Origin: an uncultured Methanomicrobiales archaeon
GTDB taxonomy: Archaea > Halobacteriota > Methanomicrobia > Methanomicrobiales > JACTUA01
DNA length: 64,000 nucleotides
Assembly (NCBI GenBank): GCA_964551875.1
Contig: CAZKEV010000002.1
Location: 16,047 to 80,046 of the forward strand
Direction: 5' to 3'
The position numbers were made by a program, and so were the translations under genes. Below the pieces are notes generated by a model that searched no databases, had not been told where the DNA came from, and worked only from the letters and a program-made list of their open reading frames with translations. Shown here piece by piece: positions 2,792 to 30,142 of this stretch. Within the stretch, counting starts at the first letter, position 1; every line of letters starts with the position of its first letter.

Positions 2792-2804
2792 CGGAGGGGG
2801 CAGC

Positions 2805-11133: not shown

Positions 11134-11145
11134 ACGCGGCAACCA

Positions 11146-11194: not shown

Positions 11195-11206
11195 CAGGGG
11201 TGACCT

Positions 11207-12874: not shown

Positions 12875-12883
12875 GAGACATCG

Positions 12884-13045
12884 ATGGCTGAGAGCGACCA
12901 GACCATGCTCCTCCCGTTCAAGATCGTCTTCTCGGAGACGGACCCCACGGCGGTCCTCTACATCCTGTTCAAGGACACGACCAACGGCAAGAAGTACAAT
13001 CTCCAGGTGACGAACGGGGCCGTCGAGGTTGTCGAGGTGGTGTAG
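12884..13045 (+). CDS. Small hypothetical protein (53 aa, below the ORF-track cut-off)
   Basis: ATG 12884 after TAGGAGA. MAESDQTMLLPFKIVFSETDPTAVLYILFKDTTNGKKYNLQVTNGAVEVVEVV. It fills the gap between two fibre genes. Confidence 0.35.
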   Translation: MAESDQTMLLPFKIVFSETDPTAVLYILFKDTTNGKKYNLQVTNGAVEVVEVV

Positions 13046-13046
13046 G

Positions 13047-13661: not shown

Positions 13662-13662
13662 C

Positions 13663-13677
13663 CGCAAACGCTTTGCG
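13663..13677. repeat. Palindrome CGCAAA-CGC-TTTGCG (copy 2, intergenic)
   Basis: Begins 2 nt after the stop at 13661. Followed by AAAAGCC and the next gene's start region. Confidence 0.9.
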
Positions 13678-13705
13678 AAAAGCCGAGTGAGTGGCGGGGG
13701 TATCG

Positions 13706-16246
13706 ATGGGCCAGAACACCGCAATCATCACCAGGGACATGTACGACGAGGCGAAACGATACGTCCTCACGGTGCTTCAGGCAGGGGTTCCCCTCGTCGA
13801 CGCCGACTACAACGACCAGATGGTGTCCCTTTTCACCCAGCTTCGCCGGGTCGTCCAGACGGGCATCGGCGACGGGGCGGTCGGGGACGCTTTCCTGATC
13901 CAGCAGTACCTCCCTAACCCGGTGAACAACTTCCGGATCACGGGCGGGATCACCCCCGTCACCGCTAACATCACCATCGACGCCACGCCGAAGGTGACGG
14001 CCCTCCCCCAGCCGGGGCCGGAGGGGCTGTTTGACAAGGGGCACAACGCCCAACTTGAGGCGGACGAGACCTTCCTGGTGGGAACGGAGACGCTTCCGAC
14101 GTCCACGGGGGCCTCGGCGACGGCCTTCCCGAACGACACCCTGAATGATTCGGCGGCCCAGTTTGTTCCCGCCTCCTTGGTGGGGCTCATCCTGGTCCCG
14201 GACATCACGGTGCCTGCGAACCAGTACCCCATCGTCGCCAACACGGGGAACACCATTCAGGCCAACGGCACGATGGTCTTCACCCCCGGCCAGAGCTACC
14301 GCGTCCTTCTGACGACGCCTGCCGTGAACCGGAAGGACTTGGTGTACCTGGACGTCTACCTGGACGAAATCAATTCGACGGAGGACACGGACCTCAAGCA
14401 TCAAATCGACTCCATGCTCATCACGGCGATGCTGAGGAAGAAAATCGTCCAGACGGTCCTCGTCCAGGAGGGGGTCGCTCTCCCCATGACGATTCCGACC
14501 GGGTGGACGGACGCGGACGGCAACCCGCATGTAATCGTCCCCCTGGCCCTCATCGACCGGCCAGCCGGGAACGCGAACATCACCGACTCGATGATCACGG
14601 ACCTCCGGAGGAAAATCTTCCGGCTGGACGAGATCGACGACCGCTTCGTGAACGTGACCGGGGACACCATGACGGGCACCCTGGTCATGCAGGCGAACAT
14701 CATCATGGCCCCGGGTCGGAAGGTGCTGGGGACGTGCGTGATCGACGCCAACGCCCTGTGCGAGGACACGGTAGGCCAGAAGCACATGAAGCGGGACTCC
14801 CACCTTCTCGGGAGTTTCGACGCGGTTCCGACGTGGAGCCAGGTGAACAATCCGCTGGACCCGAACCACTTCAAGGTCCACGACAACCGGTACTACGAGA
14901 AATCCGTCCTCGACGCGATGATCGGGGCGAACCTCATCTCCAACGGGCTGTTCGACGACGGCCTGGTGGGGTGGGAAAACCTGGCCCCGAGACCCCTCTA
15001 CGGCTACCCCGCCATCGAGGCCGAAAAGATCATCGTGGCGATCAGCCTGTGCGGGGCGACGTGCGAGGGGGGCTTCTGCTCCTGCCGGTCCCTCCAGGTC
15101 TACATCCCGGCGGGGAACCGGATCTGCACGGTCTGCGCCGTGCGGCAGGAGGTCTGCGGAGGGATCAAGTGCGGCGGGGAGTTCATGCTCATCCACACCC
15201 TCTGCGTCACCAAGGGCGAGGAGGCGGTGATCCCCTTCCTGGTGTTCGATCTCTACTCCTCCTGCCAGTACGTCGGGACGCGGCGATACCAGATGTGGAC
15301 CCCATCGCTGGACCAGCCCGACAAGCAGGGAATCGACATCTACGACGGCTTCGTGCGGATGGAAAAGAAGATCGACCTCCCGAAGTGCGTGGACAACGCG
15401 GTGGTGACCCTCTGCTTCCAGGTCATTCCGCTGAAGGTTCTGAATCCTCCCGTTCCTCCAATCACCTGCGACGAGTGCAGGCAGGGAGCTCCGTTGACCG
15501 AGGGGACGGGGGCCATCTGGTTCTGCGTCGAGGATCCGGTGCAGCTCACCCCGTTCGCCATCTGCCGGAACTTCCCGACCCCGAAGGCGGTGGTGGACGC
15601 GATTTTCTTCGATCTCCAGTCGAATCGACCGGGGGTGGCGATCGTCACGATCCTCGTGGATGCCAACGGGAGAAGGGCCGTACATGCTGACGTGGCTACC
15701 GGAGGGCTCGATTCGTTCTTGGTCACCGTGCCCTCCTTCTCGATGCCCGACGGGCAGGTGGACTGGCAGAACATCATCTCCTGGTGCCAGTATTGGCAGG
15801 ATCCCCAGCCGTACGACGACAACGCCACGGACAACTGGAAGATCGACAATGTGCTGGTCGAGGGGTGGAACGACATCGAGGCCCTGTTCGAGCAGCAACT
15901 GGCCTACTGCGGGTACCAGGGGGAGCCGGGCCAGCCTCGCTCGATGAATCGAGGGCCGACGCCGACGCCCCCGGACCCGAATCCACCCTCACCCGCGTGT
16001 GAGGTGGGGCCGAATCCCTTCGAGATTTCGGTCTGCGCGGTGCAGATGCGCCGGATCAGCGGTCCGGAGGGCGAGATTGACCCAGGGATCGGGTGCAAGA
16101 CGAACAAGATCCCGGTCATCACGACCGTGCAACTGGACGGTACGGTGAACTTCACCCCGGCATTCAACCAAGTGGCGACCGTTCTGGAAGTCCTCGAAGA
16201 GGACTGCCTGGTGCAGGAACCCGAGGAGCCGGAAGGGCCGCAGTGA
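13706..16246 (+). CDS. Large fibre/adhesin protein with Cys-rich region and C-terminal carbohydrate-binding-module-like domain
   Basis: ATG 13706 (the track gives GTG 13691). 847 aa. The C-terminal module ILVDANGRRAVHADVATGG...DWQNIISWCQYWQD...NWKIDNVLVEGW is repeated in the next gene. Confidence 0.6.
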   Translation: MGQNTAIITRDMYDEAKRYVLTVLQAGVPLVDADYNDQMVSLFTQLRRVVQTGIGDGAVGDAFLIQQYLPNPVNNFRITGGITPVTANITIDATPKVTALPQPGPEGLFDKGHNAQLEADETFLVGTETLPTSTGASATAFPNDTLNDSAAQFVPASLVGLILVPDITVPANQYPIVANTGNTIQANGTMVFTPGQSYRVLLTTPAVNRKDLVYLDVYLDEINSTEDTDLKHQIDSMLITAMLRKKIVQTVLVQEGVALPMTIPTGWTDADGNPHVIVPLALIDRPAGNANITDSMITDLRRKIFRLDEIDDRFVNVTGDTMTGTLVMQANIIMAPGRKVLGTCVIDANALCEDTVGQKHMKRDSHLLGSFDAVPTWSQVNNPLDPNHFKVHDNRYYEKSVLDAMIGANLISNGLFDDGLVGWENLAPRPLYGYPAIEAEKIIVAISLCGATCEGGFCSCRSLQVYIPAGNRICTVCAVRQEVCGGIKCGGEFMLIHTLCVTKGEEAVIPFLVFDLYSSCQYVGTRRYQMWTPSLDQPDKQGIDIYDGFVRMEKKIDLPKCVDNAVVTLCFQVIPLKVLNPPVPPITCDECRQGAPLTEGTGAIWFCVEDPVQLTPFAICRNFPTPKAVVDAIFFDLQSNRPGVAIVTILVDANGRRAVHADVATGGLDSFLVTVPSFSMPDGQVDWQNIISWCQYWQDPQPYDDNATDNWKIDNVLVEGWNDIEALFEQQLAYCGYQGEPGQPRSMNRGPTPTPPDPNPPSPACEVGPNPFEISVCAVQMRRISGPEGEIDPGIGCKTNKIPVITTVQLDGTVNFTPAFNQVATVLEVLEEDCLVQEPEEPEGPQ

Positions 16247-16256
16247 GAGGTGGACG

Positions 16257-19200
16257 ATGGGTAGGTGGCCTACGGATTTTCCGGGTCTGGTGATCGACCC
16301 GAGCCGCCAGTGCGTCGTGAATCAGGTCGAGCTGGCGCGGTTTCCTGTACGGGTCTGCGAGTGCTTCTCCGAATGCACGAACCCCGGCGCACCCTTCCCC
16401 ATGCTGACGGAGTGCTTCATCTACGGGGTGCAGCTTGGGGATTTGGACAAGGGGTGCCCGCTCATCACGGACGGGGCGCTCGGAGTGACCGTAGGATTTC
16501 TGGAAGCCCACTTTTTCGTTCGACTCCAGCTTCCGAACGAGGCGGGGGTTGACCCGGACATCAACTTCCTCCAGGGCGGAGGAGACATTACCAACACGGC
16601 CCTCCGGTTCAACCTCTACATCGGGAAGCCCGTCGGCATCTACGAGGTTTACCTCGTGGACGGAAACGGGCATAGAGCATGGATCTCCTTCGAGCCTGCC
16701 GTGGGCTCGATTCTGTGGGTGAACATCCCGCTGGAGGACTTTACCCTTCTCGATCCTCCTGACCCCCCGAATCCCGATTTCGACTGGAGCGTCGTCCGGT
16801 ACATTTACTTCGGCTTCACGAATAACTTCCAGGTGGCCGAGTGCATGATGGCCTTGGACAACGTGAGGGTCTGCACGAAGGAGCCAATCGGAGGGTTCTC
16901 GTTCAACCCCGACACGGAGCCCTACGGGACGAATCCGGATGGAGCCTCCTGCGTGATGCTGGAGACGTTCGACAGCGAAGCGTCTCTCCGGAAGGTGGAA
17001 TGCGACGCCCCGGAGCCCGGCCCCCCGACTCCCGAGGATTGCGACAAGTGCGTGGTCGGGCCGCCGCTCATCGACGGGAACGGGGCCATTCACTTCTGCG
17101 TGGACACCATTCCCGAGCCGTTCTACCCCCCGAGCATTCGGTACATCGCCGCCGCTTTCGCCCTCACCACGGACGTCACCTTCACGATCTACTCCTGGAG
17201 GCCAGGGGTGAACGTCAGGGTGATCCTGGTTGATTTCTCTGGCCGCAGGGCGATCTACAACCTCGTGGCTATCGGGGGGTCGCAGACGGTCACGGTCAGC
17301 CTTCTCGCCTTCACGTATCCCGACGGAGGTTTCGACTTTGCCAACGTGACCGGATGGTGGACGATCTTCGGAACGGCGGGGGTCAACTCCAACGACCGCT
17401 TCGCGGTGGACGAACTGAGGACGAACGGCGGGGCCATACTCATCAACGACATGAGCACCCTGGCCGACATCTACTGCGGGTACGATCCGGAGCCCCAGGA
17501 ACCGAATACGACGATGGAGTGCGAGTGGGTCGCCCTTCTCCCGGTGCTGACGCATGTCCCGGCCCCTCCGGGGAACGTGAACTTCGACGCGCTTACGTGG
17601 ACCGGGCCTCTCACCATTGCGACGGTCAGCCAGCCGTGCGACGACCCCGCCGGGTACTGGGACCTCGGGTTCGACGACCCCCAGGATCCTTTGGGCAACA
17701 ATGACGTGCAGATCGGATTCAACCTTCCGGCCCTCCCCCCGTCGCTGATGATGCGCGAGGCCATTCTGACGTTGTTCGACGAGGCGGGCCGGGAGCTGAT
17801 GATCCATGTGGCCCCTCCGCTGGTAATCGGGGCCAACGTCATCACGATTGCTCTGAGTTCAACCCTGGCGGGGCAGCCGACCCTGGAGTCGAAGGGGAAG
17901 TTCAACGCCCGCAGGGTCATGTATTGGCAGCTCGGATTCGTAGGGGTGGAGGTCGATTCCATCGTCTACCCCTTCATCATCAATTTCGAGGGGTTCCAGT
18001 TCAGGGCGAACGGGAACGTCACGAAGGCTTTCCTGTTCCAGAACTACGGCATCGACCCCGCTACGGGGAAGGTGGACTTCGAGGCCAAGGGGGGTTACTC
18101 CTGCTACGAGGACTGGAGACAGGTGAAGGTGGTGCCTGCCGGAACGCAGTTCGAGTTCCTCGCGGGAGCGGGCGTGACGGTGGACACGGACCCGAACTTC
18201 GTCGTAGACAACGTCGGGATTGACCGGGGGAAGATCCCGGTGAACGACGACAGATCGGAGCTGCGGGCGGAAGTCTGGATGCCGGGGACCGGGTTCAATC
18301 CAGGGTGGAAGGATGGGCACGGTTGGAGCCATCTTGATTTCAGCTACCGGGCGAGACCCGACTCCCCCGCTCCCGGTGTCCCGTGCGACATGTATTACGT
18401 GATCCAGACCGTGCGAGGGCAGACGGCGACGGTCAAGTTCGACAGTCACGCCGGTGGGACTCCGATTCTTCCTCTCGACCAATGGAGGCAGTTCACCACC
18501 GACAGATGGAACATGAACATGCCGATGGGAGACATCCTGTCGGACTTCTGGCGTCTCTTCCGCGTAGTGAAGGAAAAGACGCCGAACCAGCCGAGGACGG
18601 GGACTCCTCCGACGGGCAGGGACCAGTTCATGGGGGACGAACTCGACTTCCTCAGAGCAAGAACTCACGGCGATGGTAACGACCAGAGTTTCGTCGGAAA
18701 CTGTGGGAGGCCCACGGTCGAAGCGGTGAGGGACAACGGCCAGTGGGCGTCCATCGCCGCCTACGGGGACGACCAGCCCGACCACTTCAACGGGCACGTC
18801 CATCACGAAACCGACTGCGGTGTAGCGGCGGGGAACCTGACGGGCGACCCTCCTCCGGGATGGCCCTTTAGCGGTCTTGGAGAATTATCTCCCTACCACC
18901 AGGCGTTCACCGGCTGGATGAAGATCAACAAGCTGGTCGAGGGGCAGGGCGTGATGAGCGTCCAGTTCCCGAGGCCCATCAACCTGTCCGCCGAGGTCTT
19001 GAATAACCAGTCGTTTTTTCAGATCTTCGCGTACGGGACCAACTTCGGCATGGGGCTGGATCTGGAAACCATCGCAGACGTGCAGCTGATTCTTCATGAC
19101 GCCATTGGGGGCACCGCAACCATCAGTCTTGGAACGGGCGCGTTGGGCTCCGGCCTCCTGGGAGCCCCGCAGGGCTGGAACCCTGCCAACCTGTGGGTAA

Positions 19201-22200
19201 CAAACAGTTTCCATGCGACCAATAACCTCTACGCCATGCTGTTCCGGCTCATAGAAAACACGGACGGAGGCATCAACTGGCAGGCCGTTACGGGCTACGA
19301 GTTGAAGTCGAACCATGAAGATCCCGACGGCTGGAGGATGTCCAAGACGTGGTTCTTCCAGGACTGCTACGGTACGTTCATCGCCCCGACCCTCATCTAC
19401 AACTGGGACAGGTCTACATGGACGAACCTCATCGGGTTCCAGAACCCGTCGAACCAGTTCTCCGTGGGCAAGGAGATCGACCCGATGACGACTCCGGTCG
19501 TCGCCTTGAACTGCGACCGGACGAAGAAGATCGCCTACTGGGGCATGGACGAGGACTGGATCAGGACGGCAGACATCGTCCTGGTCCCCGCCAAGTACAG
19601 GGACGATTCCATCGTGGGGATCAATGGAAATCGGGGGTACGATCCCCTCGGGAACCCCCTGCCCGGCGTCCTGGAGGCCCTCGCCAGGGACACGCGGGCG
19701 TGGTACGGCAACATCGCCTTCCGGGTGCCTCCGTTTGCCGGGTGTCGGAACATCTGGATGGACTTCTGCTACATCGAGGAGGTGATTTGCCTCGGCGAGG
19801 ACCTGGAGAAGGCCATCTACGCCTTCTGGGACACGGCATGCCCGTGCTACGGCCCTCCCCAGGAGATCTCCACCCTGGTCACCCACTACAGGGGGAAAGT
19901 TCCGCTGACGAACGAGCCCCTGTCGGGGTGGATGGACCGCATCCTGCCGGATGACCGGTTCATCCTTGAGCCGGGGGCGCAGCCGCTTCCGGCGGGATAC
20001 CCGGAGTCCATCTACTTCGAGTATTGCGCCATCCCCGACTGCGACCAGACGGCGACGGACGACACCGATCCCAACTTCACGTTCGTCAGGAGAACGCCGA
20101 CGTGCTCGCGGCCCGACGACCCGCTGAACACCATGTACGGGTACTACCGCGTCGAGGTCGAGGTGACCGCCAAGACCCCGATGGTCACGGTGAACTGGGC
20201 CGACGTTCTGAACCCCGGAGAGACGCTGGTCAGTGGGGCCATGTCCGGATTGGCGATCCTTGCGGGGATCGGGGACTCGTACAAGTGGGAATACATCATC
20301 AAAACGGCCCAGCTCCAGGCGGGAACGGTGGTCATCACGGGGGCGGCTTGGGCGGTTGCGCCCCCGGTCACGCTGGTCTCTCCGGCCATCACGATGGACG
20401 TGGACTGCGACACGGTTTCCTGGCACACCTTCGGGAGCCAGAACCCCAACGTCTACGGCCAGGTGTTCTGGGCGGGAGGAGGAAGATCGGATCCGGTGGT
20501 CCCCCCGAACGTGAAGTTGTGGACGAAGGTCTACGCCGGGCCGGGATCGGCGGGCCTGAGCAAGCGGGAGCAGTACCTCTTCGGGGACGCGACCATCCCC
20601 GACACAACGGCAAGCTGGATCTTCCAGCTCGGCGGGACGGGCATCGAGGGCTTCGCCGTCGGGCTCCCTGTCTGGATCTTCAACACGAACTTTGTGGACA
20701 ACCCCGCCAGGGCGATCACCGGCCTGGATATCGAGGCCGAGGAAATGATGATCGACCCGAACGAGGAGGTCACTGGCCTCTACGGGGTGGTGAAGTCCGT
20801 TGACCCGGCTCTGATGAGGGTCGAGGTGGACTTCAACATTCCGACGAACCAGCAAGTGCGTTTCACCATGCTGGCGATGGCCTGCATCATGGTCGCTCCG
20901 GACAAGTCTCGGGGCTACTACTGGGAGGCGAGTCCGGAGCTGGTTGACATCTGCAAGATCCTTCCGTACCTCGGCGCGGGGAGGGCGGAACTGCGGTGGG
21001 GATTCCACTACTGGAACGCGACCAAGTACCCCGCCATCGAGACGCAGGGGGCCGGGTACATCTGCGACGGGGACGGGGAAAGCTACCTCTACGAGTTCCA
21101 CGGGGAGGCCGCGAAGGAGATCATCAACCCCGTGGACTGGATGGACCTTTTGTGCAGCCCGGTGCAGGAGACCAAGCTCTCGAACGACGCCCTGCCTACG
21201 CAGGACGACATCCGGGTGTGCGACTACTGCCTGTTCCAGCCGTGCTCCATCGTCCAGATCGTGGACGAGAACTGCACGGGCAAGGAGGGGGGAGGGCCGG
21301 GCTACATCGGATCGGTCGTGCTGACGACGCCCGACGACCCCGGCAAGACATGCGCCTCCCTCTACGCCGCCGAGGGGCATCTCAAGATCATTCCCGCGAT
21401 CCCGGCGGCGGTCACCGGATGCGGGCTCATCGACGGGTTCAAGACGACGCGGAGGGCCAGGGCATTCGTGAAGCCCGACGTGGCCCGGTACGCCTACAGC
21501 CCGACCACGAAGGTCGATGCCAACGGAGTCCCGGTGGAGGGGCAGAACTTCGTGGGGGTGGACTTTGCGACCGGGTTGTTCACCTTCATCCCGGACGTCG
21601 TGGTGAGTAACCCCTGCGTCTGTTACAAGGCGCTGAACTCAAGCATCAAGATCGAGCCGCTGCTTCCCGGCATCTACTTCTTGAAGGGGATCGACAAGAG
21701 CGGATGCAAGAGCCCGCCGAGCAAGCCCATCAAGGTCGCGGGGGAATCGACGGAGCCCGAGGACTGCGGCGTGGGGTTGAGCCCGACCCTCCTGTTCCAC
21801 AAGACGCTCAATGACGGGGAGCAGGAATACGTAGGGCCGCAAGGGGCGGATCTTCCCATCGTGGGATCGACCATCAACTTCACCCTCGCCTCCCCGTCGA
21901 GGGTGGAATTCCGGGTGTCCTTCTTCGGGTTCGACGTGGTCTGGGGAAGCAAGTTGGGGAAGGACATGACGGGCTGGACCGAACTCTTGGTGAAGAACCT
22001 GCAATCCGGAGCCGTCCATAAGATCATGGACAGGCTCCTCATGGTTCGCGCCCAGGAGCAGGGCGGCCAGCCGGATGCGGAGGCCGATGGTGGGGCCGGT
22101 TCCGTGGGCTCCAGGGTCGTTGACCTCCCGGCGGGGGTCTACGTGTTCGACCTCATCATCAGGAACGGTCCCCCGCCGTCCACCGGAAGGACCAGATCCC

Positions 22201-22250
22201 CCATCGACATCCAGGTCTGGCGGTATGGGGTGTGTATTCCTCCGATGTAG
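16257..22250 (+). CDS. Giant (1997 aa) fibre/adhesin protein with several CBM-like modules
   Basis: Uninterrupted ORF with GC3-rich codons; ATG after GAGAGGTGG. Contains reiterated modules (YLVDGNGHRAWISF...ALDNVRV; ILVDFSGRRAIYNL...FAVDELR; LTLFDEAGRELMIHV...). Confidence 0.65.
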   Translation: MGRWPTDFPGLVIDPSRQCVVNQVELARFPVRVCECFSECTNPGAPFPMLTECFIYGVQLGDLDKGCPLITDGALGVTVGFLEAHFFVRLQLPNEAGVDPDINFLQGGGDITNTALRFNLYIGKPVGIYEVYLVDGNGHRAWISFEPAVGSILWVNIPLEDFTLLDPPDPPNPDFDWSVVRYIYFGFTNNFQVAECMMALDNVRVCTKEPIGGFSFNPDTEPYGTNPDGASCVMLETFDSEASLRKVECDAPEPGPPTPEDCDKCVVGPPLIDGNGAIHFCVDTIPEPFYPPSIRYIAAAFALTTDVTFTIYSWRPGVNVRVILVDFSGRRAIYNLVAIGGSQTVTVSLLAFTYPDGGFDFANVTGWWTIFGTAGVNSNDRFAVDELRTNGGAILINDMSTLADIYCGYDPEPQEPNTTMECEWVALLPVLTHVPAPPGNVNFDALTWTGPLTIATVSQPCDDPAGYWDLGFDDPQDPLGNNDVQIGFNLPALPPSLMMREAILTLFDEAGRELMIHVAPPLVIGANVITIALSSTLAGQPTLESKGKFNARRVMYWQLGFVGVEVDSIVYPFIINFEGFQFRANGNVTKAFLFQNYGIDPATGKVDFEAKGGYSCYEDWRQVKVVPAGTQFEFLAGAGVTVDTDPNFVVDNVGIDRGKIPVNDDRSELRAEVWMPGTGFNPGWKDGHGWSHLDFSYRARPDSPAPGVPCDMYYVIQTVRGQTATVKFDSHAGGTPILPLDQWRQFTTDRWNMNMPMGDILSDFWRLFRVVKEKTPNQPRTGTPPTGRDQFMGDELDFLRARTHGDGNDQSFVGNCGRPTVEAVRDNGQWASIAAYGDDQPDHFNGHVHHETDCGVAAGNLTGDPPPGWPFSGLGELSPYHQAFTGWMKINKLVEGQGVMSVQFPRPINLSAEVLNNQSFFQIFAYGTNFGMGLDLETIADVQLILHDAIGGTATISLGTGALGSGLLGAPQGWNPANLWVTNSFHATNNLYAMLFRLIENTDGGINWQAVTGYELKSNHEDPDGWRMSKTWFFQDCYGTFIAPTLIYNWDRSTWTNLIGFQNPSNQFSVGKEIDPMTTPVVALNCDRTKKIAYWGMDEDWIRTADIVLVPAKYRDDSIVGINGNRGYDPLGNPLPGVLEALARDTRAWYGNIAFRVPPFAGCRNIWMDFCYIEEVICLGEDLEKAIYAFWDTACPCYGPPQEISTLVTHYRGKVPLTNEPLSGWMDRILPDDRFILEPGAQPLPAGYPESIYFEYCAIPDCDQTATDDTDPNFTFVRRTPTCSRPDDPLNTMYGYYRVEVEVTAKTPMVTVNWADVLNPGETLVSGAMSGLAILAGIGDSYKWEYIIKTAQLQAGTVVITGAAWAVAPPVTLVSPAITMDVDCDTVSWHTFGSQNPNVYGQVFWAGGGRSDPVVPPNVKLWTKVYAGPGSAGLSKREQYLFGDATIPDTTASWIFQLGGTGIEGFAVGLPVWIFNTNFVDNPARAITGLDIEAEEMMIDPNEEVTGLYGVVKSVDPALMRVEVDFNIPTNQQVRFTMLAMACIMVAPDKSRGYYWEASPELVDICKILPYLGAGRAELRWGFHYWNATKYPAIETQGAGYICDGDGESYLYEFHGEAAKEIINPVDWMDLLCSPVQETKLSNDALPTQDDIRVCDYCLFQPCSIVQIVDENCTGKEGGGPGYIGSVVLTTPDDPGKTCASLYAAEGHLKIIPAIPAAVTGCGLIDGFKTTRRARAFVKPDVARYAYSPTTKVDANGVPVEGQNFVGVDFATGLFTFIPDVVVSNPCVCYKALNSSIKIEPLLPGIYFLKGIDKSGCKSPPSKPIKVAGESTEPEDCGVGLSPTLLFHKTLNDGEQEYVGPQGADLPIVGSTINFTLASPSRVEFRVSFFGFDVVWGSKLGKDMTGWTELLVKNLQSGAVHKIMDRLLMVRAQEQGGQPDAEADGGAGSVGSRVVDLPAGVYVFDLIIRNGPPPSTGRTRSPIDIQVWRYGVCIPPM

Positions 22251-22259: not shown

Positions 22260-22469
22260 ATGAACAAGCCGAACACACGGGTAGTCTGGGTGGTCTACAG
22301 CGAGGGATCGGGGGCGGTGCAGGCCCTCTACTTCCGCGACCCGAAGACAGTGAAGCAGGGCTACGGGATCATCAAGACAGTTTTGGATGAGAGGGCCATT
22401 CAGAAACCCCACCATCTTCGTGTGGTTGGGGAGAAGGTCGTCAGCGTTCTTGCCCTGGGAGGAATCTGA
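22260..22469 (+). CDS. Hypothetical small protein
   Basis: 69 aa. ATG lies 10 nt after the giant gene's stop. Confidence 0.45.
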   Translation: MNKPNTRVVWVVYSEGSGAVQALYFRDPKTVKQGYGIIKTVLDERAIQKPHHLRVVGEKVVSVLALGGI

Positions 22470-22475: not shown

Positions 22476-22504
22476 TTGAAATAAAAGAGCGGCTCTGATA
22501 CGAT
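22476..22504 (+). promoter_or_regulatory. Candidate sigma70-type promoter of a moron
   Basis: TTGAAA-N17-TACGAT within the only AT-rich intergenic stretch of the late region (22470-22552). Confidence 0.4.
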
Positions 22505-22552: not shown

Positions 22553-22816
22553 ATGGCACCGCCCCTCATCACCGAAGACATCGTGTTCCAGCACATCTCC
22601 AGCCCGTTGGGCAACCCCGGCTCGCCGTTCGACAAGGCCCTGGCGATGCGGGACCAGATCGTCGTGGGCTTCATCCAGAAGATCAACCGCCTCCCCTACC
22701 GTTCCCTCGGCGGCGGCATCCTGTCCGACCTCTGGGGCAACGAGGTGAAGGCCAACAACGCCGCGATCTTCCCCGGCATGGGCAACTTCGGGCCGGGCGG
22801 CGGGCCGCTTTCGTAG
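22553..22816 (+). CDS. Hypothetical 87-aa protein (moron cargo)
   Basis: ATG 22553 after TAGGAGGA. Gly-rich C-terminus GMGNFGPGGGPLS. Bracketed by its own candidate promoter and terminator. Confidence 0.5.
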   Translation: MAPPLITEDIVFQHISSPLGNPGSPFDKALAMRDQIVVGFIQKINRLPYRSLGGGILSDLWGNEVKANNAAIFPGMGNFGPGGGPLS

Positions 22817-22847: not shown

Positions 22848-22876
22848 GGGCGGAGGACGGTCTCCGCCCATTTTCC
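22848..22876 (+). terminator. Rho-independent terminator
   Basis: GGGCGGAG-GACGGT-CTCCGCCC forms an 8-bp perfect stem, followed by ATTTTCC. Confidence 0.55.
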
Positions 22877-22889: not shown

Positions 22890-23822
22890 ATGAAGAAAGC
22901 CCTGATCGTAGGGATCAACCGCTACCCCTCTTCGCCCCTCAAGGGGTGCGTGAACGACGTCGAGGACTGGCACAAGCTTCTCGCGTCCCTCGGGAAGTAC
23001 CCCGCCGACAACATCCGGGCGGTGTGCGACGAGCGGGCCACGACCCAGGGCATCCGGGACCGCATGGCGTGGCTCAAGGAGGGCCTGAAGGGGCCGGGCG
23101 ACGAGGTGTTCTTCGCCTTCTCAGGTCACGGTTCTCAAGTGAGAGACCGTGGTAGCCTCGATGAACTTGCCGACAACCTTGACGAGATCCTCGTGCCTGT
23201 GGACATCGATTGGAACACCAGGGTCATCACGGACGACGACATCGGGGAGTGGCTCAAGGGATTCCCGAAGGGGACCAGGATCACGGTCGTCCTCGACTGC
23301 TGCCACTCGGGCACGGGGACCAGGGAGATGAGGCCTCCCCAGGAAAACCCGCACTACAAGGCCGACCGCTACCTTCCCCCGCCCCTCGACATCTTCCTCC
23401 GTTCCGAGGGACTTGCCACGCGGAAGGGAGTGGAGATTGGAGTCAAGATCGGGCGCGGTCACGGCAAGCGGAATGGTTGGCGGGAGGCCAAGGCGAACGG
23501 CAAGAAAAAGAGCCTGTTCTGGTGGAAGAATCCCTGCTTGAAGCCCAAGCCTGCCACGATTTCCACTCCCGTCGCCACGATGAACCACGTTCTCATCTCC
23601 GGGTGCAGGAGTGACCAGACCAGCGCCGACGCCCTCATCAATGGGCGGTACAACGGGGCGCTCACCTGCTACCTGGCGACAGCCATGCGGCTGATGCAGG
23701 GGAAGTCGATCCGAGAGGTACACGCGCTGGCGCGGAAGTCGATCTTGGACGCGGGGTACACGCAGGATTCACAGTTGGAAGGCCCCGAAAGCCTTCTGAC
23801 CCATCCGGTATTCATGGTATAA
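22890..23822 (+). CDS. Caspase-like cysteine peptidase (Peptidase C14, metacaspase/orthocaspase type)
   Basis: KALIVGINRYP...LKGCVNDV at the N-terminus. Catalytic His in FAFSGHGSQ and catalytic Cys in VVLDCCHSGTG. 310 aa. Confidence 0.85.
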   Translation: MKKALIVGINRYPSSPLKGCVNDVEDWHKLLASLGKYPADNIRAVCDERATTQGIRDRMAWLKEGLKGPGDEVFFAFSGHGSQVRDRGSLDELADNLDEILVPVDIDWNTRVITDDDIGEWLKGFPKGTRITVVLDCCHSGTGTREMRPPQENPHYKADRYLPPPLDIFLRSEGLATRKGVEIGVKIGRGHGKRNGWREAKANGKKKSLFWWKNPCLKPKPATISTPVATMNHVLISGCRSDQTSADALINGRYNGALTCYLATAMRLMQGKSIREVHALARKSILDAGYTQDSQLEGPESLLTHPVFMV

Positions 23823-23825
23823 CTA

Positions 23826-23840
23826 CGCAAACGGTTTGCG
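23826..23840. repeat. Palindrome CGCAAA-CGG-TTTGCG (copy 3, intergenic)
   Basis: Begins 4 nt after the caspase-like gene's stop. Followed by AAAAGGAG (RBS of the 23855 gene). Confidence 0.9.
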
Positions 23841-23854: not shown

Positions 23855-24718
23855 ATGAGTCGCTACTACGCCCCGACCGATAAAACCGTCCGGGGGAACC
23901 TCTTGGACGACTTGCAGGCCGACAAGGAAGCCATCGCCGCAGCGTTCGAGGGGGTCCAGGACGAAGAGAAGATGATGGACGCGGGAGGGGCGGGTGTGGG
24001 TTACATCCACTTCCTCACCCAGCCCAACGCCGAGGACGCCTTCTCCGTGGACGGGCAGATCTACCGCTTCTTCACGGGATCGCCTCCGAGGCCCCCGCGT
24101 CCGCCGTGGAGGCCGCCGTGGAGGCCGATCCCCCGACCCCGCGAGCCCTTCCTGCCGAGGGAGATCCTCCCGAGGGAGATTCCCCCGGACGAGTTCGACG
24201 TGGGGATCATCATCGGGCTCACCGTCGAGGAGACCATCGACCACGCCGCTGCCGCAATCGAGGGGAACATCTACACGGGCGTCCGGGGCATCCGGGCGGT
24301 CAACGGGGCCGGGCCGGTCCTGCTCCTGGCGGCTCGATGGGCAGGGGCCGACTCCAACTTCCCGATCGAAGAGAGCACGGCAGGGGTCCGCATGGTGGTG
24401 GGTGAGAGCGAGGCGCGGAGCGCGGCGGAGCCCCGCCAGAGGAAGGTCGTCACCTGCAACTACGCCATGAACGACCGGGACATCGCGGCCCTGGCGACGC
24501 CGTGCGAGATCCCGATCATGTGCTGCATCGCCAGCACGGCCCCGCAGTTCGGGGGGGCGATCATCCTGCGGGGAATGGGCCTCAACGTGGTCCCCTTCAC
24601 GGCGGACATCGGCTTCGGCGTCCGCCAGATCGGGGACGAGCTCTGGATCATCACGGTTCACGACCTGGGTGGGGTCATCCTGGAAGGCGACTCCATGCTC
24701 GTGACTGCGTGGACGTAG
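23855..24718 (+). CDS. Hypothetical fibre-associated protein, paralogue A (shared N-terminal module, Pro/Arg-rich linker)
   Basis: ATG after AAGGAG. The N-terminus YYAPTDKTVRGNLLDDLQADKEAIAAAFEGVQD is shared with the ORFs at 24748 and 25833. Confidence 0.55.
   Translation: MSRYYAPTDKTVRGNLLDDLQADKEAIAAAFEGVQDEEKMMDAGGAGVGYIHFLTQPNAEDAFSVDGQIYRFFTGSPPRPPRPPWRPPWRPIPRPREPFLPREILPREIPPDEFDVGIIIGLTVEETIDHAAAAIEGNIYTGVRGIRAVNGAGPVLLLAARWAGADSNFPIEESTAGVRMVVGESEARSAAEPRQRKVVTCNYAMNDRDIAALATPCEIPIMCCIASTAPQFGGAIILRGMGLNVVPFTADIGFGVRQIGDELWIITVHDLGGVILEGDSMLVTAWT
24101..24124 (+). repeat. Perfect 12-bp tandem duplication (CCGCCGTGGAGG x2) in coding sequence
   Basis: Direct reading. Encodes the repeated PPWR PPWR in the Pro/Arg-rich linker. 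Confidence 0.8.
24155..24184 (+). repeat. 15-bp tandem repeat (CCGAGGGAGATCCTC / CCGAGGGAGATTCCC)
   Basis: Direct reading, 13/15 identical. Encodes PREIL PREIP. Confidence 0.75.
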
Positions 24719-24747: not shown

Positions 24748-25506
24748 ATGACCGTTCAGAACTTCTATGTCCGTGGAGACAAGTCGATCATCAGCAACGT
24801 CATCGACGAGTTCGAGAGCGAGCGCAATCGTGTCCAGACCGCCTTCCAGGGGGTCCAGGACAAGTTCGACTCCGGGGGAGGAAGCGGAGGGGGGACGCGG
24901 ATCGTAGGAAACGACGTAACTCTGACGGCGGGGTACTTCCAGTTTACGGTCCCGCTGGACGCCGGAAACATCAACAGGTACTGCCGGATCGGAGGCCCTC
25001 TATCCTACGGCAGGCAACAGATCCACTTCACCGGGAACCAGAGCGTCCTGCGACTGGGGGCGTGCTCGTCCGACGGTGACGCCTTCACGGAGGACTCCGA
25101 TGGGATCGTCGTCTACAAGGAGAGCTCCAACTTCCTCGCGAGGATCAAGGCTGATCGGTTCGGACTCACCCGCTGCACGGACTCGGCGCTCTACTTCTTC
25201 CGGGTGGACCCGAGCGCCCTGTACTACAGGGCGGACCCCCCCGGAGGGGCGGTACACTTCCGGGTCGATCGCGTCACGGGCATGATGAGCCTGGGGCACG
25301 ACGCCCCTGTCTCCGGCCTGGACATCTACCCGGACGCGGGGGGCGTGGACAAGGGATTCATCACGCTCAGGGAGCTGGCGGGGGGTCTCCCGCTGGCAGC
25401 GGCGAACGCCGTGGCTCTCGGGGCGAAGGACGACGGACTGGGCAAGACCCAGTTGGTGGTCAGGTTCCAGAGCGGTGCTGAGGTGCCACTGGCGACGGAG
25501 GCGTAG
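24748..25506 (+). CDS. Hypothetical fibre-associated protein, paralogue B
   Basis: N-terminus FYVRGDKSIISNVIDEFESERNRVQTAFQGVQD aligns with paralogues A and C, followed by a Gly linker GGGSGGG. Confidence 0.55.
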   Translation: MTVQNFYVRGDKSIISNVIDEFESERNRVQTAFQGVQDKFDSGGGSGGGTRIVGNDVTLTAGYFQFTVPLDAGNINRYCRIGGPLSYGRQQIHFTGNQSVLRLGACSSDGDAFTEDSDGIVVYKESSNFLARIKADRFGLTRCTDSALYFFRVDPSALYYRADPPGGAVHFRVDRVTGMMSLGHDAPVSGLDIYPDAGGVDKGFITLRELAGGLPLAAANAVALGAKDDGLGKTQLVVRFQSGAEVPLATEA

Positions 25507-25832: not shown

Positions 25833-26270
25833 ATGCCGTACGTCAGACCGGACAAGGCGATCAGGGAGAACATCATCGTCAAGATGGAGGAGGACCGCGA
25901 CGCGATCCAGGCCGCCTTCTCCTCCAGTCTCATCGAGACCTCGGTGGACTTCATCCACGACATGCCCCCGGTGGGCGGCGACGTGCGGATCAGGACGGCG
26001 CTGGGCACGATGACCCCCATCGAGGGGTCGTGCTGCTGCATGCCGGGAAGCGGACCCGGAGGGCTGGTGGACATCAAGGTAGGCACTCCCGCAGGCCCCT
26101 CGATCCTGACGGCCCCTGCCGCCATCACCTCGACCCCCGGCGTCCCGGTGCCGCTGTCCTTCATCCCCGGCGTGTACATCCCGGCGGGCGTGCCGATCTG
26201 CTACATCCTGACGGACATCGGGGCTCCGGTCTTCTTCCCGACGATGAACGTCAAGTGGAACATGACGTAG
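25833..26270 (+). CDS. Hypothetical fibre-associated protein, paralogue C
   Basis: ATG after AAGGAGGG. N-terminus YVRPDKAIRENIIVKMEEDRDAIQAAF aligns with A and B. Contains a CCC motif. Confidence 0.55.
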   Translation: MPYVRPDKAIRENIIVKMEEDRDAIQAAFSSSLIETSVDFIHDMPPVGGDVRIRTALGTMTPIEGSCCCMPGSGPGGLVDIKVGTPAGPSILTAPAAITSTPGVPVPLSFIPGVYIPAGVPICYILTDIGAPVFFPTMNVKWNMT

Positions 26271-26313: not shown

Positions 26314-26862
26314 GTGCGGAAGATCATCTACGCGCTCGGCGGGATTACCCTGATGATGTCGGTCGGGTGCAACGGGGATTTCCTCAAGATCGACCCAGCC
26401 TTCGCGGCCCCCCTCGTCGAGAAGGGCGCGGCGATCACGACCACGCTGGGGCTCAAGGCCCTGGTTTCGGACGCCGAGGGCTACGAGAAGGTGAAGGCGG
26501 TGGTCAAGCCGGTGCAGGAGATCATCGACACTACGGTGATCCCCATCATCAAGGGGGTGGATCTGGCCGACGTGACGCGGGCGACGGTAGACAAGGCCCT
26601 GGCCCTCTTGAACGAGAAGATCCCCCAGGAGATCAAGGGAGTGATCCAACTGGCCGTGAATGGGGCGCTGGTCCTCTTGAAGATGCCCGACAACCCCGCG
26701 ACGAAACTGGAACCAGGACAGGCCGAAATCATTCTGGCCCTGTTCCGGGGCATCGAGACGGGGGCCTCGGCGTTCGTGGCTTGGGGCGGGCCGGGTGCCA
26801 AGGCTCTCGGGGACATCCCTGTGGTGATGGAAATCACATGGGCCGGAGGAAAAGGCCCGTAG
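26314..26862 (+). CDS. Putative lipoprotein (last gene of the late operon)
   Basis: GTG after AAGGAGGTGGGGA. Signal peptide MRKIIYALGGITLMMSVGC has a lipobox-like SVGC. Confidence 0.6.
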   Translation: MRKIIYALGGITLMMSVGCNGDFLKIDPAFAAPLVEKGAAITTTLGLKALVSDAEGYEKVKAVVKPVQEIIDTTVIPIIKGVDLADVTRATVDKALALLNEKIPQEIKGVIQLAVNGALVLLKMPDNPATKLEPGQAEIILALFRGIETGASAFVAWGGPGAKALGDIPVVMEITWAGGKGP

Positions 26863-26889
26863 GATTACCGGTCTCCTTTCCTTCCCGCG

Positions 26890-26927
26890 ATCCGCCGGGG
26901 GGTTCGCGCCTCCTGGCGGATTTTTTT
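26890..26927 (+). terminator. Strong rho-independent terminator closing the late operon
   Basis: ATCCGCCGGGGGG ... CCTCCTGGCGGAT forms a stem of about 13 bp including G-U pairs, followed by T7. Confidence 0.8.
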
Positions 26928-26939: not shown

Positions 26940-26967
26940 TTGACAAAATCATTGAACGATATATACT
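26940..26967 (+). promoter_or_regulatory. Consensus early/middle promoter P1
   Basis: TTGACA-N16-TATACT, preceded by CCC and followed by ATAATAGG. About 27 nt upstream of the SWIM gene start. Confidence 0.75.
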
Positions 26968-27456: not shown

Positions 27457-28563
27457 ATGCGGATCGGACAGGTGCCGGAAGTTCTGCGGGCGCACGAATC
27501 GGCGGGCAACGCGGTCATGCTCTGGTCGCCTCCGGGCGTGGGCAAATCGAGCCTGGTCGGGCAGATGAGCGAGGAGGACGGCGTCCTCAATGTCGACATC
27601 CGCCTCAGCCTCCTCAACCCGGTCGACCTGCGGGGCATCCCCATCGTCAAGGGGGATCGGGTCGAGTGGGTGCCGCCGGTGTTCCTGGTCAACAAGGGGC
27701 CATGCCGCTTCTTCCTCGACGAGATCAACATCGCTCCTCCCACCACCCAGGCCGCCGCCTACCAGTGGGTGCTCGACGGACGGATCGGCGAGTGGGCGAT
27801 GGACCGCACCCCGATGGTCACGAAGACGGGATGCAAGCGCCCGGCGCAGACGATCGTCGCTGCCGGGAACCGCGCTTCCGATCAGGCATTCGTCCACCAG
27901 ATGCCCGCCCCCCTGCGGAACAGGATGGCGCACATCGAGGTGGAGCCCCACCTGGACGACTGGAAGGAGTGGGCCTGGAAGTCCGGGGTCGACGGGAGGA
28001 TCATCAACTTCCTCCAGTTCACTTCGCGGGTCGGGGTCGGGCTCAACGCCGATTCTCCCTGGGGCCTCCTCTTCTTCTTCGATCCCAAGGTCCACGCGAC
28101 GGGGGCCTTCCCGACCCCGCGCTCCTGGGTCCAGGTCAGCAACTTCGTCGGGGTGAATCCCCGGTTGGCCATGAACACCGAGGCGATCGCCGGGATGGTC
28201 GGGGGCGCGGTCGCGCAGAAGTTCGTGGCCTTCCTCAAGGTCGCGGACAAGCTCCCGAACGCCGACCGGGTCCTCGACGGCGAGATCACCCTTCACCCGC
28301 CGACGGAGCCAAGCGCCCTCTACGCCTTCTGCGGTGCGCTCACCGCCGCCCTCATCCGGAGGGAGAAGGACAAGCGGGTGAAGGCCACCGAGAACGTCGC
28401 CCTCTACTGCGCCAAGCACTGGGCCGATGCGGCGGAGTTCGCCATCCTGACCATGAAGGACTTCGGCAGGACGCCCGAGTACAAGGAGGTCTACCGGAAC
28501 GTGATCGTCACCAAGGGCTGGCGCGACTTCGCAAAGTGCTTCGGCCAGCTCCTGGAGGTGTAG
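27457..28563 (+). CDS. MoxR-type AAA+ ATPase (AAA_5 / CbbQ-NorQ-like)
   Basis: Walker A in LWSPPGVGKSSL and Walker B in RFFLDEINIAPP. 368 aa. Adjacent to a vWA protein. Confidence 0.85.
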   Translation: MRIGQVPEVLRAHESAGNAVMLWSPPGVGKSSLVGQMSEEDGVLNVDIRLSLLNPVDLRGIPIVKGDRVEWVPPVFLVNKGPCRFFLDEINIAPPTTQAAAYQWVLDGRIGEWAMDRTPMVTKTGCKRPAQTIVAAGNRASDQAFVHQMPAPLRNRMAHIEVEPHLDDWKEWAWKSGVDGRIINFLQFTSRVGVGLNADSPWGLLFFFDPKVHATGAFPTPRSWVQVSNFVGVNPRLAMNTEAIAGMVGGAVAQKFVAFLKVADKLPNADRVLDGEITLHPPTEPSALYAFCGALTAALIRREKDKRVKATENVALYCAKHWADAAEFAILTMKDFGRTPEYKEVYRNVIVTKGWRDFAKCFGQLLEV

Positions 28564-28627: not shown

Positions 28628-30142
28628 ATGGCCGACAACGAAAACCTCTTCGCCAAGAGCAAGGTTCAGCTGGTTCTGAACCACCCGTTCTTCGGCGTCC
28701 TGGTCTGCCACTTGCCGACCGAGCCGATGGATCCCGCGATCATGATGGCGATGGGCGCTCCGCCTACGGCGATGGTCGACGGGAAGAAGATCTACTACAA
28801 CGCCGAGTGGGTGAAGGGCCTCCCGGAAAAGCAGCGGATGGGTCTCCTCTGCCACGAGATCCTTCACCCCGCCCTTCAGCACCTTTGGCGGCGGGGGCAG
28901 CGCGAGCCCGAGACCTGGAACAGGGCTTGCGACTACGTGGTGAACGACATCATCCTCAACACGAAGAACGGAGGGGGAACCGGATTTGAGCTTCCTCCCG
29001 GCGGGTGCATCGACGGCCAGTTCTCCGGGATGTCCGTCGAGCAGGTCTACCATCTTCTGAAGGAGCAGGAACAAGGGAAGGGGAAGAAGAAGGCGAAGGA
29101 AGGCAAGGTCCTCGACGGACACCTGGAGAAGGAATACGAAAAGGGCGGGGGGAAGGGGAAGGGGAAGGCGGGGGCAGGGGACCAGGGGGCCAGCAAGAAG
29201 GACGGGAAGGGGAAGGACGGGAAGGGGAAGGGGCAGGAGAAGAAGGACGGGCAGGGCAATGGCAGCGGGGCCAAGGAAGAGGCCGAACGCCAGCGCCAGG
29301 AAGCGGAGAAGAAGGCCGCGCAGGGCCAGGGCAAATCCGAGGAGAAGGATGAGGAGAAAGACGACGAGGGGGAGAACGACCAGGACGGGGAAACGCCCAA
29401 CCAGCAGCAGGAGGGGGAAGGCGGGGACGCCGACTCCAACGAGGGAAGCCTCGACGACGTGAAGGAAGACATGACGGAGGTCTGGAAGGGCCTCCTCATC
29501 CAGGCGGCGATGGTTGCGAAGTCGAGGGGAACCCTTCCCGGCCAGCTGGAACGGCTGGTGGGGGAGGTCACGAAGCCCAAGGTGCCGTGGCAGCGGATCA
29601 TCGAGATGTACATCAACGACACGATCCGCGACGACTACGATATGTGCCGCCAGGACCGGCGGTTCATCATGCAGGGGATCTACTTTCCCGAGCTGCAAAG
29701 CAACGCGGCGAGCGTGGTGGTTGCGACCGACACCTCCGGCTCCATCGGGGGGGATGAGCTGAAGACCTTCGTCGGGGAGATCACGGGCATCCTGCGGTGC
29801 AGGGGGGTCTCGGCAATGAGGCTGATGGCCTGCGATGCCGAGATCACCATGGACGAGACGCTTCTCCCGACGGACGCCTTGCCGGAGAACTTCCCCGGCG
29901 GTGGTGGGACGGACTTCCGCCCGGTCTTCAAGCGGATCGCTGACAACATGGAGGGGATTCCTCCCGCCCTGATCGTGTACCTCACGGATGGGTACGGGAC
30001 TTTCCCGGAGCGGGACATCGGCATCCCGACGATCTGGTTGATCGCGGCGCACTCGGGAACGCCCGACGAGAGCCTTCCCAAGCCGCCCTTCGGGATCACG
30101 GTGCGGTACGACCTGGATACGGAGGTCATCGGTGTCCTTTGA
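28628..30142 (+). CDS. vWA-domain protein with N-terminal HExxH metallopeptidase-like domain (DUF2201-like architecture)
   Basis: LLCHEILHPALQH carries HExxH. A ~150-aa K/G/E/D low-complexity insert follows. VVVATDTSGSIGGDEL is the MIDAS DxSxS motif. Confidence 0.8.
   Translation: MADNENLFAKSKVQLVLNHPFFGVLVCHLPTEPMDPAIMMAMGAPPTAMVDGKKIYYNAEWVKGLPEKQRMGLLCHEILHPALQHLWRRGQREPETWNRACDYVVNDIILNTKNGGGTGFELPPGGCIDGQFSGMSVEQVYHLLKEQEQGKGKKKAKEGKVLDGHLEKEYEKGGGKGKGKAGAGDQGASKKDGKGKDGKGKGQEKKDGQGNGSGAKEEAERQRQEAEKKAAQGQGKSEEKDEEKDDEGENDQDGETPNQQQEGEGGDADSNEGSLDDVKEDMTEVWKGLLIQAAMVAKSRGTLPGQLERLVGEVTKPKVPWQRIIEMYINDTIRDDYDMCRQDRRFIMQGIYFPELQSNAASVVVATDTSGSIGGDELKTFVGEITGILRCRGVSAMRLMACDAEITMDETLLPTDALPENFPGGGGTDFRPVFKRIADNMEGIPPALIVYLTDGYGTFPERDIGIPTIWLIAAHSGTPDESLPKPPFGITVRYDLDTEVIGVL

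Follow-up and report, generated by a model that had tools for sequence, protein, structure and literature searches.

The window, that is, the whole stretch of 64,000 nucleotides analysed here (from contig CAZKEV010000002.1), contains an open reading frame (ORF) at positions 22890-23822 whose 310-amino-acid product matches the Pfam family Peptidase_C14 (PF00656) with an E-value of 4.1e-28 (score 99 bits, cutoff 21) and has 1121 homologues in a large protein collection, the nearest 98% identical. An earlier reading made from the letters alone (hereafter, the sequence-only reading) had proposed a caspase-like C14 peptidase at this place, and both the frame and the family are borne out; the generic 'caspase' model of PADLOC likewise matches the ORF at the domain level (2e-22). 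The motifs named by that reading fall at residues 3-12 (KALIVGINRY), 78-81 (SGHG) and 136-141 (DCCHSG), and the catalytic dyad that it described as intact, His80 (codon 23127-23129) and Cys138 (codon 23301-23303), is invariant in an alignment of 98 family members. The protein is almost certainly a metacaspase, active to judge by its intact residues, and its gene appears to be the second of an autonomous two-gene cassette that has been stable in a phage lineage, the first gene encoding a protein of 87 amino acids. The protease gene is divided as follows.

22890-23822, forward strand: ORF of 310 amino acids with an ATG start, the Peptidase_C14 protein
22890-23321, forward strand: p20 region, residues 1-144 (Pfam; phmmer and profile alignments; columns of the 98-sequence alignment; predicted local distance difference test, pLDDT, above 90)
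23322-23579, forward strand: inter-domain region, residues 145-230 (alignments; low pLDDT)
23580-23822, forward strand: p10 region, residues 231-310, plus the stop codon (aligned to the p10 of AtMC4 and Yca1)

Under published criteria a metacaspase combines a DxCH motif with a p10 domain, and an orthocaspase is without p10 (PMC5756287). Because the phage protein has both the motif (D136-C137-C138-H139, at the catalytic cysteine) and p10, we assign it to the metacaspases, the presence of p10 ruling out an orthocaspase. The p20 region contains the S1 residue Asp23, His80, an acidic loop (D86/D91/E92/D95/D98/E99), TDDD (114-116), Asp136 and the Cys138 of DCCHSG, and the p10 region contains, at residues 237-248, the motif SGCRSDQTSADA, for which the consensus in the metacaspase criterion is SGCxDxQTSADA. 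A sequence search against solved structures matched only metacaspases (AtMC4, Yca1, CgMCA1, TbMCA2, AtMC9 and Geobacter GSU0716), over residues 2-143 of p20 and residues 232-296 of p10, including SGCRSDQTSADA; the phage p10 aligns to residues 337-405 of AtMC4 and 273-338 of Yca1. The profile of the 98 family members spans fungal type I cores from end to end (E = 1.7e-57, for CgMCA1, and 7.9e-57), with the match starting after the fungal prodomains. The AlphaFold2 (AF2) model of the protease has a pLDDT of 80 and a predicted template modelling score (pTM) of 0.79 and is confident except at residues 140-153 and 173-230, the pLDDT in p10 being 87-98. Every listed fold match is a metacaspase, a paracaspase (MALT1) or a caspase: Foldseek ranks AtMC4 and AtMC9 at the top, followed by GSU0716, Yca1 and TbMCA2, with MALT1 and the caspases after them, and gives a probability of 1.00 to AtMC4, AtMC9, Yca1 and TbMCA2. 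Invariant residues in the 98 sequences include H80, C138, D23, D136, D91, D98 and D115, while the p10 motif, R145, R171 and H139 are near-invariant; D247 is invariant in a 26-sequence alignment and near-invariant in the 98, and Q292 is invariant in both.

Asp23 (in GCVND) and Asp136 align with the S1-pocket aspartates of metacaspases and are both invariant in the 98 sequences, an alignment that also shows conservation of the acidic loop (D98/E99) and of TDDD (114-116); the phage metacaspase is predicted to cleave after Arg or Lys. Like the type I metacaspases (Yca1, 4F6O; CgMCA1, 7QP0; TbMCA2, 4AF8), the protein has one continuous p20-p10 core, and it has in common with them the His/Cys dyad, DxCH, the aspartates of GCxND and DxC, the acidic loops and SGxxDxQTSADA. 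The fungal type I chains match from residue 54 or 98, whereas the phage chain begins at strand beta1 (residue 2) and has no type I prodomain; it further differs from type I in having an Arg at 145 in place of Asp, in a Lys/Arg-rich, fast-evolving insertion at 173-230, and in being encoded by a phage. On the other hand, the type II enzymes AtMC4 (6W8R/S/T) and AtMC9 (8A53, 9N3D) are the best Foldseek matches (E = 5e-21, template modelling score about 0.66), and they share with the phage protein the absence of a prodomain and the presence of a flexible linker between p20 and p10. This linker, which is basic in the phage protein, is far shorter there (about 85 residues) than in AtMC4 (about 190) and has no sequence similarity to it, and the family profile aligns better with type I than with type II cores. 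Stand-alone prokaryotic metacaspases, such as GSU0716 (3BIJ), are single-domain proteins of roughly 270-330 amino acids, 32-41% identical to the phage protein and without a conserved neighbour, from which the phage copies differ by the longer basic linker and, in this lineage, by a dedicated small partner encoded upstream. Taken together, the phage protein departs from the textbook types in the missing prodomain, the Arg145 for Asp and the Lys/Arg-rich linker.

Arg145 lies seven residues after the catalytic cysteine, where Yca1, CgMCA1 and AtMC4 have Asp, a position that we take to be that of D220, a Ca2+ ligand of TbMCA2. It is followed by the conserved inter-domain segment RYLPPPxDIxLR (P165, R171) and then by the linker (173-230), which has 14 Lys/Arg in 58 residues, a semi-conserved [KR][IFV]G, and an identity of only 9-24% between distant phage copies. 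In the model the pLDDT falls under 50 at 140-153 and is again low throughout 173-230. In AtMC4 the linker carries an autocleavage site and blocks the active site. Since type II metacaspases offer this analogy, the Arg145 loop and the basic linker are likely to be autoprocessing or autoinhibitory elements.

The sequence-only reading overlooked the conserved gene directly upstream of the protease. This gene and the two signals around it are located as follows.

22476-22504, forward strand: promoter-like site (TTGAAA, 17 nucleotides, then TG-n-TACGAT as an extended -10 element; 9 of 12 matches in the scan, plus the TG)
22553-22816, forward strand: small partner gene, 87 amino acids (AGGAGG Shine-Dalgarno sequence; GC content at third codon positions, GC3; conserved position upstream of the protease)
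22848-22876, forward strand: GC-rich hairpin between partner and protease, with a short U tract (folding free energy -36.8 kcal/mol, z = -4.4)

The partner gene is found directly 5' of the protease gene in every lineage member examined, namely, the window and the loci that we label L001-3/L170, L004/L171, L006, L009 and L169, and all sampled members carry both genes. Widening the lineage by means of a marker, an AAA protein encoded in the window, yielded just three IMG/VR contigs, all of which carry the cassette. Homologues of the partner are confined to the same phage lineage as the window: only 21 were found among 5.8 billion proteins, all of 75-94 amino acids and all on protease-bearing contigs, and the gene is absent from all cellular metacaspase loci examined. 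The protein has a predicted two-helix hairpin core (AF2 pLDDT 72) and termini that are conserved yet disordered (FQxISSPLG, and FPGMGxFGPGGGPL at the C-terminus). We rejected the possibility that it is a split-off N-terminal domain or prodomain of longer metacaspases, as a hidden Markov model search against 284 homologues and all ORFs of the loci was empty.

Because the partner gene has a strong Shine-Dalgarno sequence (AGGAGG) 6 nucleotides before its ATG, exceeds the rest of the region in GC3 (0.955) and is followed by the hairpin, whereas the Shine-Dalgarno sequence of the protease is weaker, the arrangement suggests that the small protein would be made in excess over the protease. An element resembling TGnTAGGAT aligns upstream of the cassette in L001 and L009, and in L004 and L006 the cassette would need a promoter of its own because a divergently oriented gene precedes it; the site at 22476-22504 may thus function as a promoter. 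As for the hairpin, which the sequence-only reading had called a terminator, the stem-loop is real (the z-score is relative to shuffled sequences), but its U tract is short and a terminator scan made no call there. It is conserved in L001 and L009 and not in L004 and L006, and is probably a weak terminator or attenuator, or an mRNA-stabilising stem.

Caspase-like proteases act in bacterial cell-death defence, and the sequence-only reading had pointed to gasdermin activation, CHAT-type effectors and type III CRISPR-associated proteases as analogies. These do not hold up against the p10 domain of the phage protein and its surroundings. Such defence proteases (gasdermin-activating, CHAT/Craspase and EACC1-associated) have the clan CD fold in common with it, but they have no metacaspase p10, and their partners are gasdermin, TPR, SAVED, Cas or EACC1 proteins, none of which is encoded next to the protease in the window or in any relative's locus. 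An EACC1-type caspase is rejected by the NCBIfam model caspase_w_EACC1 (37.6 bits against a cutoff of 140), the Pfam search gave no match of the ORF to the CHAT family, a PADLOC search of the neighbouring proteins gave no matches, and PHROGs gave no meaningful match for the protease and 17 neighbouring proteins. With family models below cutoff or unmatched and the partner genes absent, we therefore rejected a caspase-like protease of a known defence system.

A related proposal is that the phage uses the protease for exclusion or abortive infection, either to kill or disable the cell upon arrival of a competing phage, or as a toxin with the small protein as its antitoxin. The role of this enzyme class in defence, the domain-level match to the PADLOC 'caspase' model and the small, strongly expressed first gene, which resembles toxin-antitoxin logic, would all agree with it. 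However, the window has its own replication machinery (PolA, DnaB, primase and ribonucleotide reductase) and shows no integrase or repressor, domains of the sensor or partner kinds usual in defence systems were not found, the EACC1-caspase model is far below its cutoff, and the occurrence of the gene is not sporadic, all sampled lineage members having it. We hold this proposal to be highly improbable, while the caution in the sequence-only reading that sequence cannot separate an effector from an exclusion factor has proved apt.

That reading also placed the protease inside a tail-fibre module. The genes it had in mind are present, including the upstream ORF of 1997 amino acids (16257-22250), three downstream proteins with about 35 N-terminal residues in common (by alignment, and by BLASTP with E of about 1e-4 in a small database), and the Pro/Arg-rich linker in the 23855 product. 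The label is a different matter: a fibre or adhesin identity is suggested by the size of these proteins and their place after Baseplate_J and P2 gpI homologues, but family searches were empty, the 1997-, 851- and 287-amino-acid proteins having no PDB, Pfam, PHROG or phage tblastn match. The downstream genes are the following.

23855-24718, 24748-25506 and 25833-26270, forward strand: three genes whose products are related over about 35 N-terminal amino acids, fibre-like or receptor-binding-protein-like by position
26314-26862, forward strand: lipoprotein, with the lipobox MRKIIYALGGITLMMSVG/C in its translation

The three paralogues have an invariant Asp-Lys at residues 9-13 and unrelated bodies, and their set varies between close relatives. 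A 252-amino-acid gene is missing in L169, a relative so close that its AAA protein is 98% identical, and a 503-amino-acid one is present in L001 (paralogue region 10943-13892); they look like receptor-binding modules swapped on a common anchor. A relative with 78% identity keeps the gene order of the window, and the fibre-like order around the protease is kept in L001 and L169. In the more distant L004 (59%) and L006 (49%), by contrast, all three paralogues are absent, and after the fibre genes come the gene of a conserved protein of 69-84 amino acids and then an island of about 5 kb with a receiver domain, glycosyltransferases and methyltransferases, which ends with the divergently oriented gene and next to which the cassette lies. 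Since the fibre-like genes are absent in L004 and L006, and the 252-amino-acid one in L169, they appear to be a variable insertion beside a stable cassette, the proximity to tail-fibre genes looking incidental; the cassette being separated from the fibre genes in L004 and L006, the comparison does not support the meaning that the sequence-only reading gave to membership in a tail-fibre module.

The same comparison bears on virion maturation, in which the protease would trim structural proteins, for example the paralogues at the Asp-Lys of residues 9-13, the 23855 product at its linker, or the giant fibre proteins. This would fit a gene inside a structural block free of promoters (see below), between the 1997-amino-acid protein and three fibre-like paralogues, in an order kept in L001 and L169, and for giant viruses it has been suggested in the literature that metacaspases cleave viral proteins (PMC10583209). 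However, L004 and L006 retain the protease without the candidate substrates, the 252-amino-acid paralogue is missing already from L169, the protease sits among non-structural genes in other phages, and it has no PHROG match and no relation in fold to the known proteases of the prohead or fibre-chaperone kinds. Because the cassette is kept whatever flanks it, and because the context in other phages is mostly non-structural, maturation of the neighbours, which the sequence-only reading had listed first among its possible roles, is disfavoured as a conserved role, and we consider it unlikely.

The island beside the cassette in L004 (4843-9526 and 11452-15422) and L006 (1719-9572), about 5-8 kb and absent from the window, encodes GT1, GT2, GT8 and GT25 glycosyltransferases, methyltransferases and a pyruvyl transferase, with an APS kinase and an ADP-ribosylglycohydrolase in L004 as well; it would be a phage-encoded module for polysaccharide or protein modification. 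On the 3' side of the cassette, L004 and L006 have a coiled-coil protein with an N-terminal transmembrane segment, whose gene is absent from the window and L001, and then a homologue of the lipoprotein at 26314-26862. The lipoprotein is encoded near the cassette in most lineage members, with the homologues in L004, L006 and L169 located 0.4-1.5 kb downstream of the protease, and in the window its gene closes the structural block. No family match was found for it. It might serve to mask a receptor or exclude superinfection, as the lipoprotein Llp of phage T5 does, or be a spanin-like protein.

These genes also raise the possibility of a function in lysis, in which the protease would stay inactive in the cytoplasm until a breach of the membrane (e.g., through Ca2+ influx) frees or activates it, and would then cut envelope-tethering proteins. 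The order in L004 and L006 (small ORF, protease, coiled-coil protein with an N-terminal transmembrane segment, lipoprotein) recalls an i-spanin/o-spanin pair, the lipoprotein is present in the window too, a search of the window proteins for endolysin families was empty, and metacaspases are in general activated by Ca2+ (PMC5756287). One homologue, P0096, carries peptidoglycan-binding domains. On the other hand, PHROG and Pfam give no support for a spanin, a holin or any other lysis function, the transmembrane coiled-coil gene is in neither the window nor L001, the lipoprotein is much bigger than typical o-spanins, and, as the window is less than half of the genome, lysis genes may be located elsewhere. 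Clan CD peptidases are not known to take part in phage lysis, which counts further against this possibility, and we regard it as very doubtful. P0096 itself is a protein of 345 amino acids that combines PF01471 and PF09374 with the caspase domain, and it hints that some relatives may act at the cell wall.

The place of the cassette in the genome is defined by the following features.

2766-4586: Baseplate_J
4789-5976: P2 gpI-like protein
26889-26922, forward strand: strong terminator at the border of the structural block
26940-26967, forward strand: first of seven perfect sigma70-type promoters, directly after this terminator
27457-28563: MoxR-like AAA_5 ATPase
28628-30142: DUF2201 protein with a metallopeptidase-like N domain and a VWA-like domain

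The window comes from a large uncultivated phage, myovirus-like, apparently of a lytic type and of 62% GC. Its phage origin, proposed in the sequence-only reading, agrees with the Baseplate_J and P2 gpI homologues, after which comes a series of very large proteins without family matches; the genes further downstream encode the MoxR-like AAA/DUF2201 pair, a DNA methylase, a class II ribonucleotide reductase, a DnaB-like helicase, a primase and a family A polymerase. Annotation searches found no integrase or repressor in the window. There is no nucleotide match of the window to 50,697 phage records, the identity of PolA and Baseplate_J to the proteins of any isolate does not exceed 27-29%, and lineage relatives are found on contigs of up to about 150 kb. 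The seven perfect sigma70-type promoters (26940, 27380, 28572, 30915, 33918, 54411 and 59692), which have the extended form TTGACAAA-N-TATAMT in common, are all on the forward strand, and the scan found none in positions 1-26900; the same layout, promoter-free and then promoter-bearing, is repeated in L169 and L006. Accordingly, a sharp border at 26.9 kb seems to separate a promoter-free structural block from a block driven by host RNA polymerase, with the protease at the end of the former. The sequence-only reading had called the protease late-expressed; the gene does lie in a block without sigma70-type promoters, and from this we infer that the block is a late one. The AAA/DUF2201 pair was considered as a partner of the protease and rejected, since it is conserved lineage-wide yet not beside the protease in other phages.

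Beyond this lineage, relatives of the protease are encoded on more than 100 IMG/VR viral contigs with a GC content of 25-68%, including jumbo phages of 200-476 kb and metagenome-assembled genomes of giant viruses, and, at 32-41% identity, at over 580 loci in genomes of bacteria and archaea, which belong to Desulfobacterota, Methanothrix, Planctomycetota, Spirochaetota and further groups. The family profile recovers 6595 clusters at 50% identity with E <= 1e-30. All-against-all clustering of neighbours at 89 viral and 80 cellular loci revealed no conserved partner beyond the lineage. Among 149 neighbour proteins on 44 other phage contigs there is a single structural Pfam family and no recurrent family, the neighbours being mostly small unknown or nucleic-acid and metabolic genes (GTP cyclohydrolase I, QueF, RecA, gp32, HNH, helicases and methylases among the Pfam families). 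Cultured phages are essentially without the gene: tblastn against the 50,697 phage records gave one match, in an uncultured phage of 485 kb, and all 20 significant matches among the viral predicted structures of BFVD are from giant viruses or an ascovirus, with no phage protein. The literature searched contained no characterised phage metacaspase, only listings in virome papers, a remark of 2012 on phage-related metacaspase operons in Clostridium botulinum, and reviews of giant viruses, whose metacaspases are described as having an unclear role in infection (PMC10583209).

Given the size of this family, the gene could be a passenger or auxiliary gene, copied from a housekeeping metacaspase of the host and doing nothing specific to the phage (e.g., acting in protein quality control). 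The stand-alone family is indeed very large in cells, as the cluster and locus counts show, and virome surveys name the metacaspase simply as an auxiliary gene (10.64898/2026.01.21.700432). A passenger would nevertheless be hard to reconcile with catalytic residues that are intact across members with only 49-89% protease identity, with the link to a phage-only partner gene, and with viral copies that are mostly nearest to other viral copies, and this explanation, too, seems to us highly improbable. The nearest outgroups of the lineage are other phage copies, marginally ahead of bacterial ones, and the protease gene has a GC content of 0.62 and a GC3 of 0.84, typical for the surrounding genome. 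Composition therefore rejects a recent horizontal acquisition, and the genome-typical GC3 and the phage-copy outgroups point to a long residence of the protease in the phage lineage.

Our preferred interpretation, to which we give a probability of roughly 45%, is that the protein is an intracellular effector protease with specificity for Arg/Lys, kept latent by its linker, perhaps with help from its partner, and acting late on host or phage proteins. The phage would make the metacaspase as a latent enzyme in the infected cell, and latency would be kept by the flexible basic linker, the more strongly expressed small partner, or both, with Ca2+ dependence possibly adding a further control, as in other metacaspases. 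Once active, the enzyme would cut after basic residues in proteins of the host or in some of the phage's own, and the outcome would be takeover, counter-defence or dismantling of the cell rather than maturation of the adjacent fibre-like proteins.

Several observations pull the other way. In the window and its closest relatives fibre-like genes do stand on both sides of the protease, within the putative late block, so that a virion-related role fits as well, and a host-directed effector is more typically an early gene. With Arg145 in place of Asp, regulation may differ from that of characterised metacaspases. Moreover, the partner protein has no PDB fold, PHROG or Pfam match, and its part in restraining the protease is conjectural.

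A more specific version of the latent-effector interpretation makes the 87-amino-acid protein a trans-acting prodomain or inhibitor, from which the protease would be released late, for instance by Ca2+ entry through a breached membrane or by titration of the partner, to cleave envelope-tethering or defence proteins of the host; the pair would then serve as a 'timer' for dismantling the cell, or as a fourth lysis function. We consider this version quite unlikely as it stands. Staphopain with staphostatin, and SpeB with Spi, are examples of a cysteine protease co-encoded with a small cytoplasmic inhibitor; the likeness is an analogy only, since neither pair is related in sequence or fold to the phage cassette, and their gene order is reversed. 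If a partner-gated 'timer' of this kind were true, it would be undescribed in phages before, and its relatives would be widespread in jumbo phages.

In comparison with known systems, what is familiar here is a large metacaspase family, and what is new is its unusual phage carrier and the lineage-specific partner; the cassette is not a new kind of system. The metacaspases of giant viruses and the caspase of ascoviruses are likewise C14 genes of viruses, whose hosts are eukaryotic. Of the phage protein, most giant-virus relatives cover p20 alone (residues 1-142), and the ascovirus enzyme is a true Asp-specific caspase. Caspase-family proteases are executioners in bacterial antiviral immunity, and almost nothing is known of such enzymes on the side of prokaryotic viruses. 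The fixed gene and its dedicated partner form a defined two-gene unit that can be tested by synthesis without the phage. If its targets were host defence or envelope proteins, the cassette would add a new class of protease to the phage repertoire for takeover and counter-defence, and would help to explain the metacaspases of giant viruses.

Some further features of the window were noted along the way. The 851-amino-acid (13691-16246) and 1997-amino-acid (16257-22250) proteins have an internal region of about 170 amino acids in common (36% identity, E = 3e-21), and the conserved 69-amino-acid protein at 22260-22469, which in relatives always comes directly after the giant gene, may be an assembly factor. 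The AAA_5/DUF2201 pair constitutes the first genes of the sigma70-driven block and is conserved lineage-wide; L001 has an additional copy of the C-terminal 108 residues of the ATPase.

The dispersed palindrome that the sequence-only reading noticed at 23826 is confirmed as a 15-bp sequence, CGCAAA-NNN-TTTGCG, with 6 exact copies in the window (0.00 expected) and one variant. The copy next to the protease is the following.

23826-23840, no strand assigned: palindrome copy CGCAAACGGTTTGCG, 28 nucleotides before the start of the next gene

All seven sites (2317-2331, 13663-13677, 23826-23840, 33513-33525, which is the variant, 42187-42201, 52304-52318 and 60684-60698) are very evenly spaced by about 9.7 kb, with gaps of 8.4-11.3 kb (p of about 3e-5 for random placement). 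Four of them lie 27-31 nucleotides before start codons with a Shine-Dalgarno sequence (2345, 13691, 23855 and 60716), and others are inside ORFs, including that of PolA. L169 keeps the palindrome after the protease with another central triplet, and more distant relatives are without it. The palindrome is possibly a binding site for a regulator or for a structural DNA-binding protein, and a MerR-like gene is located at 55970-56440.

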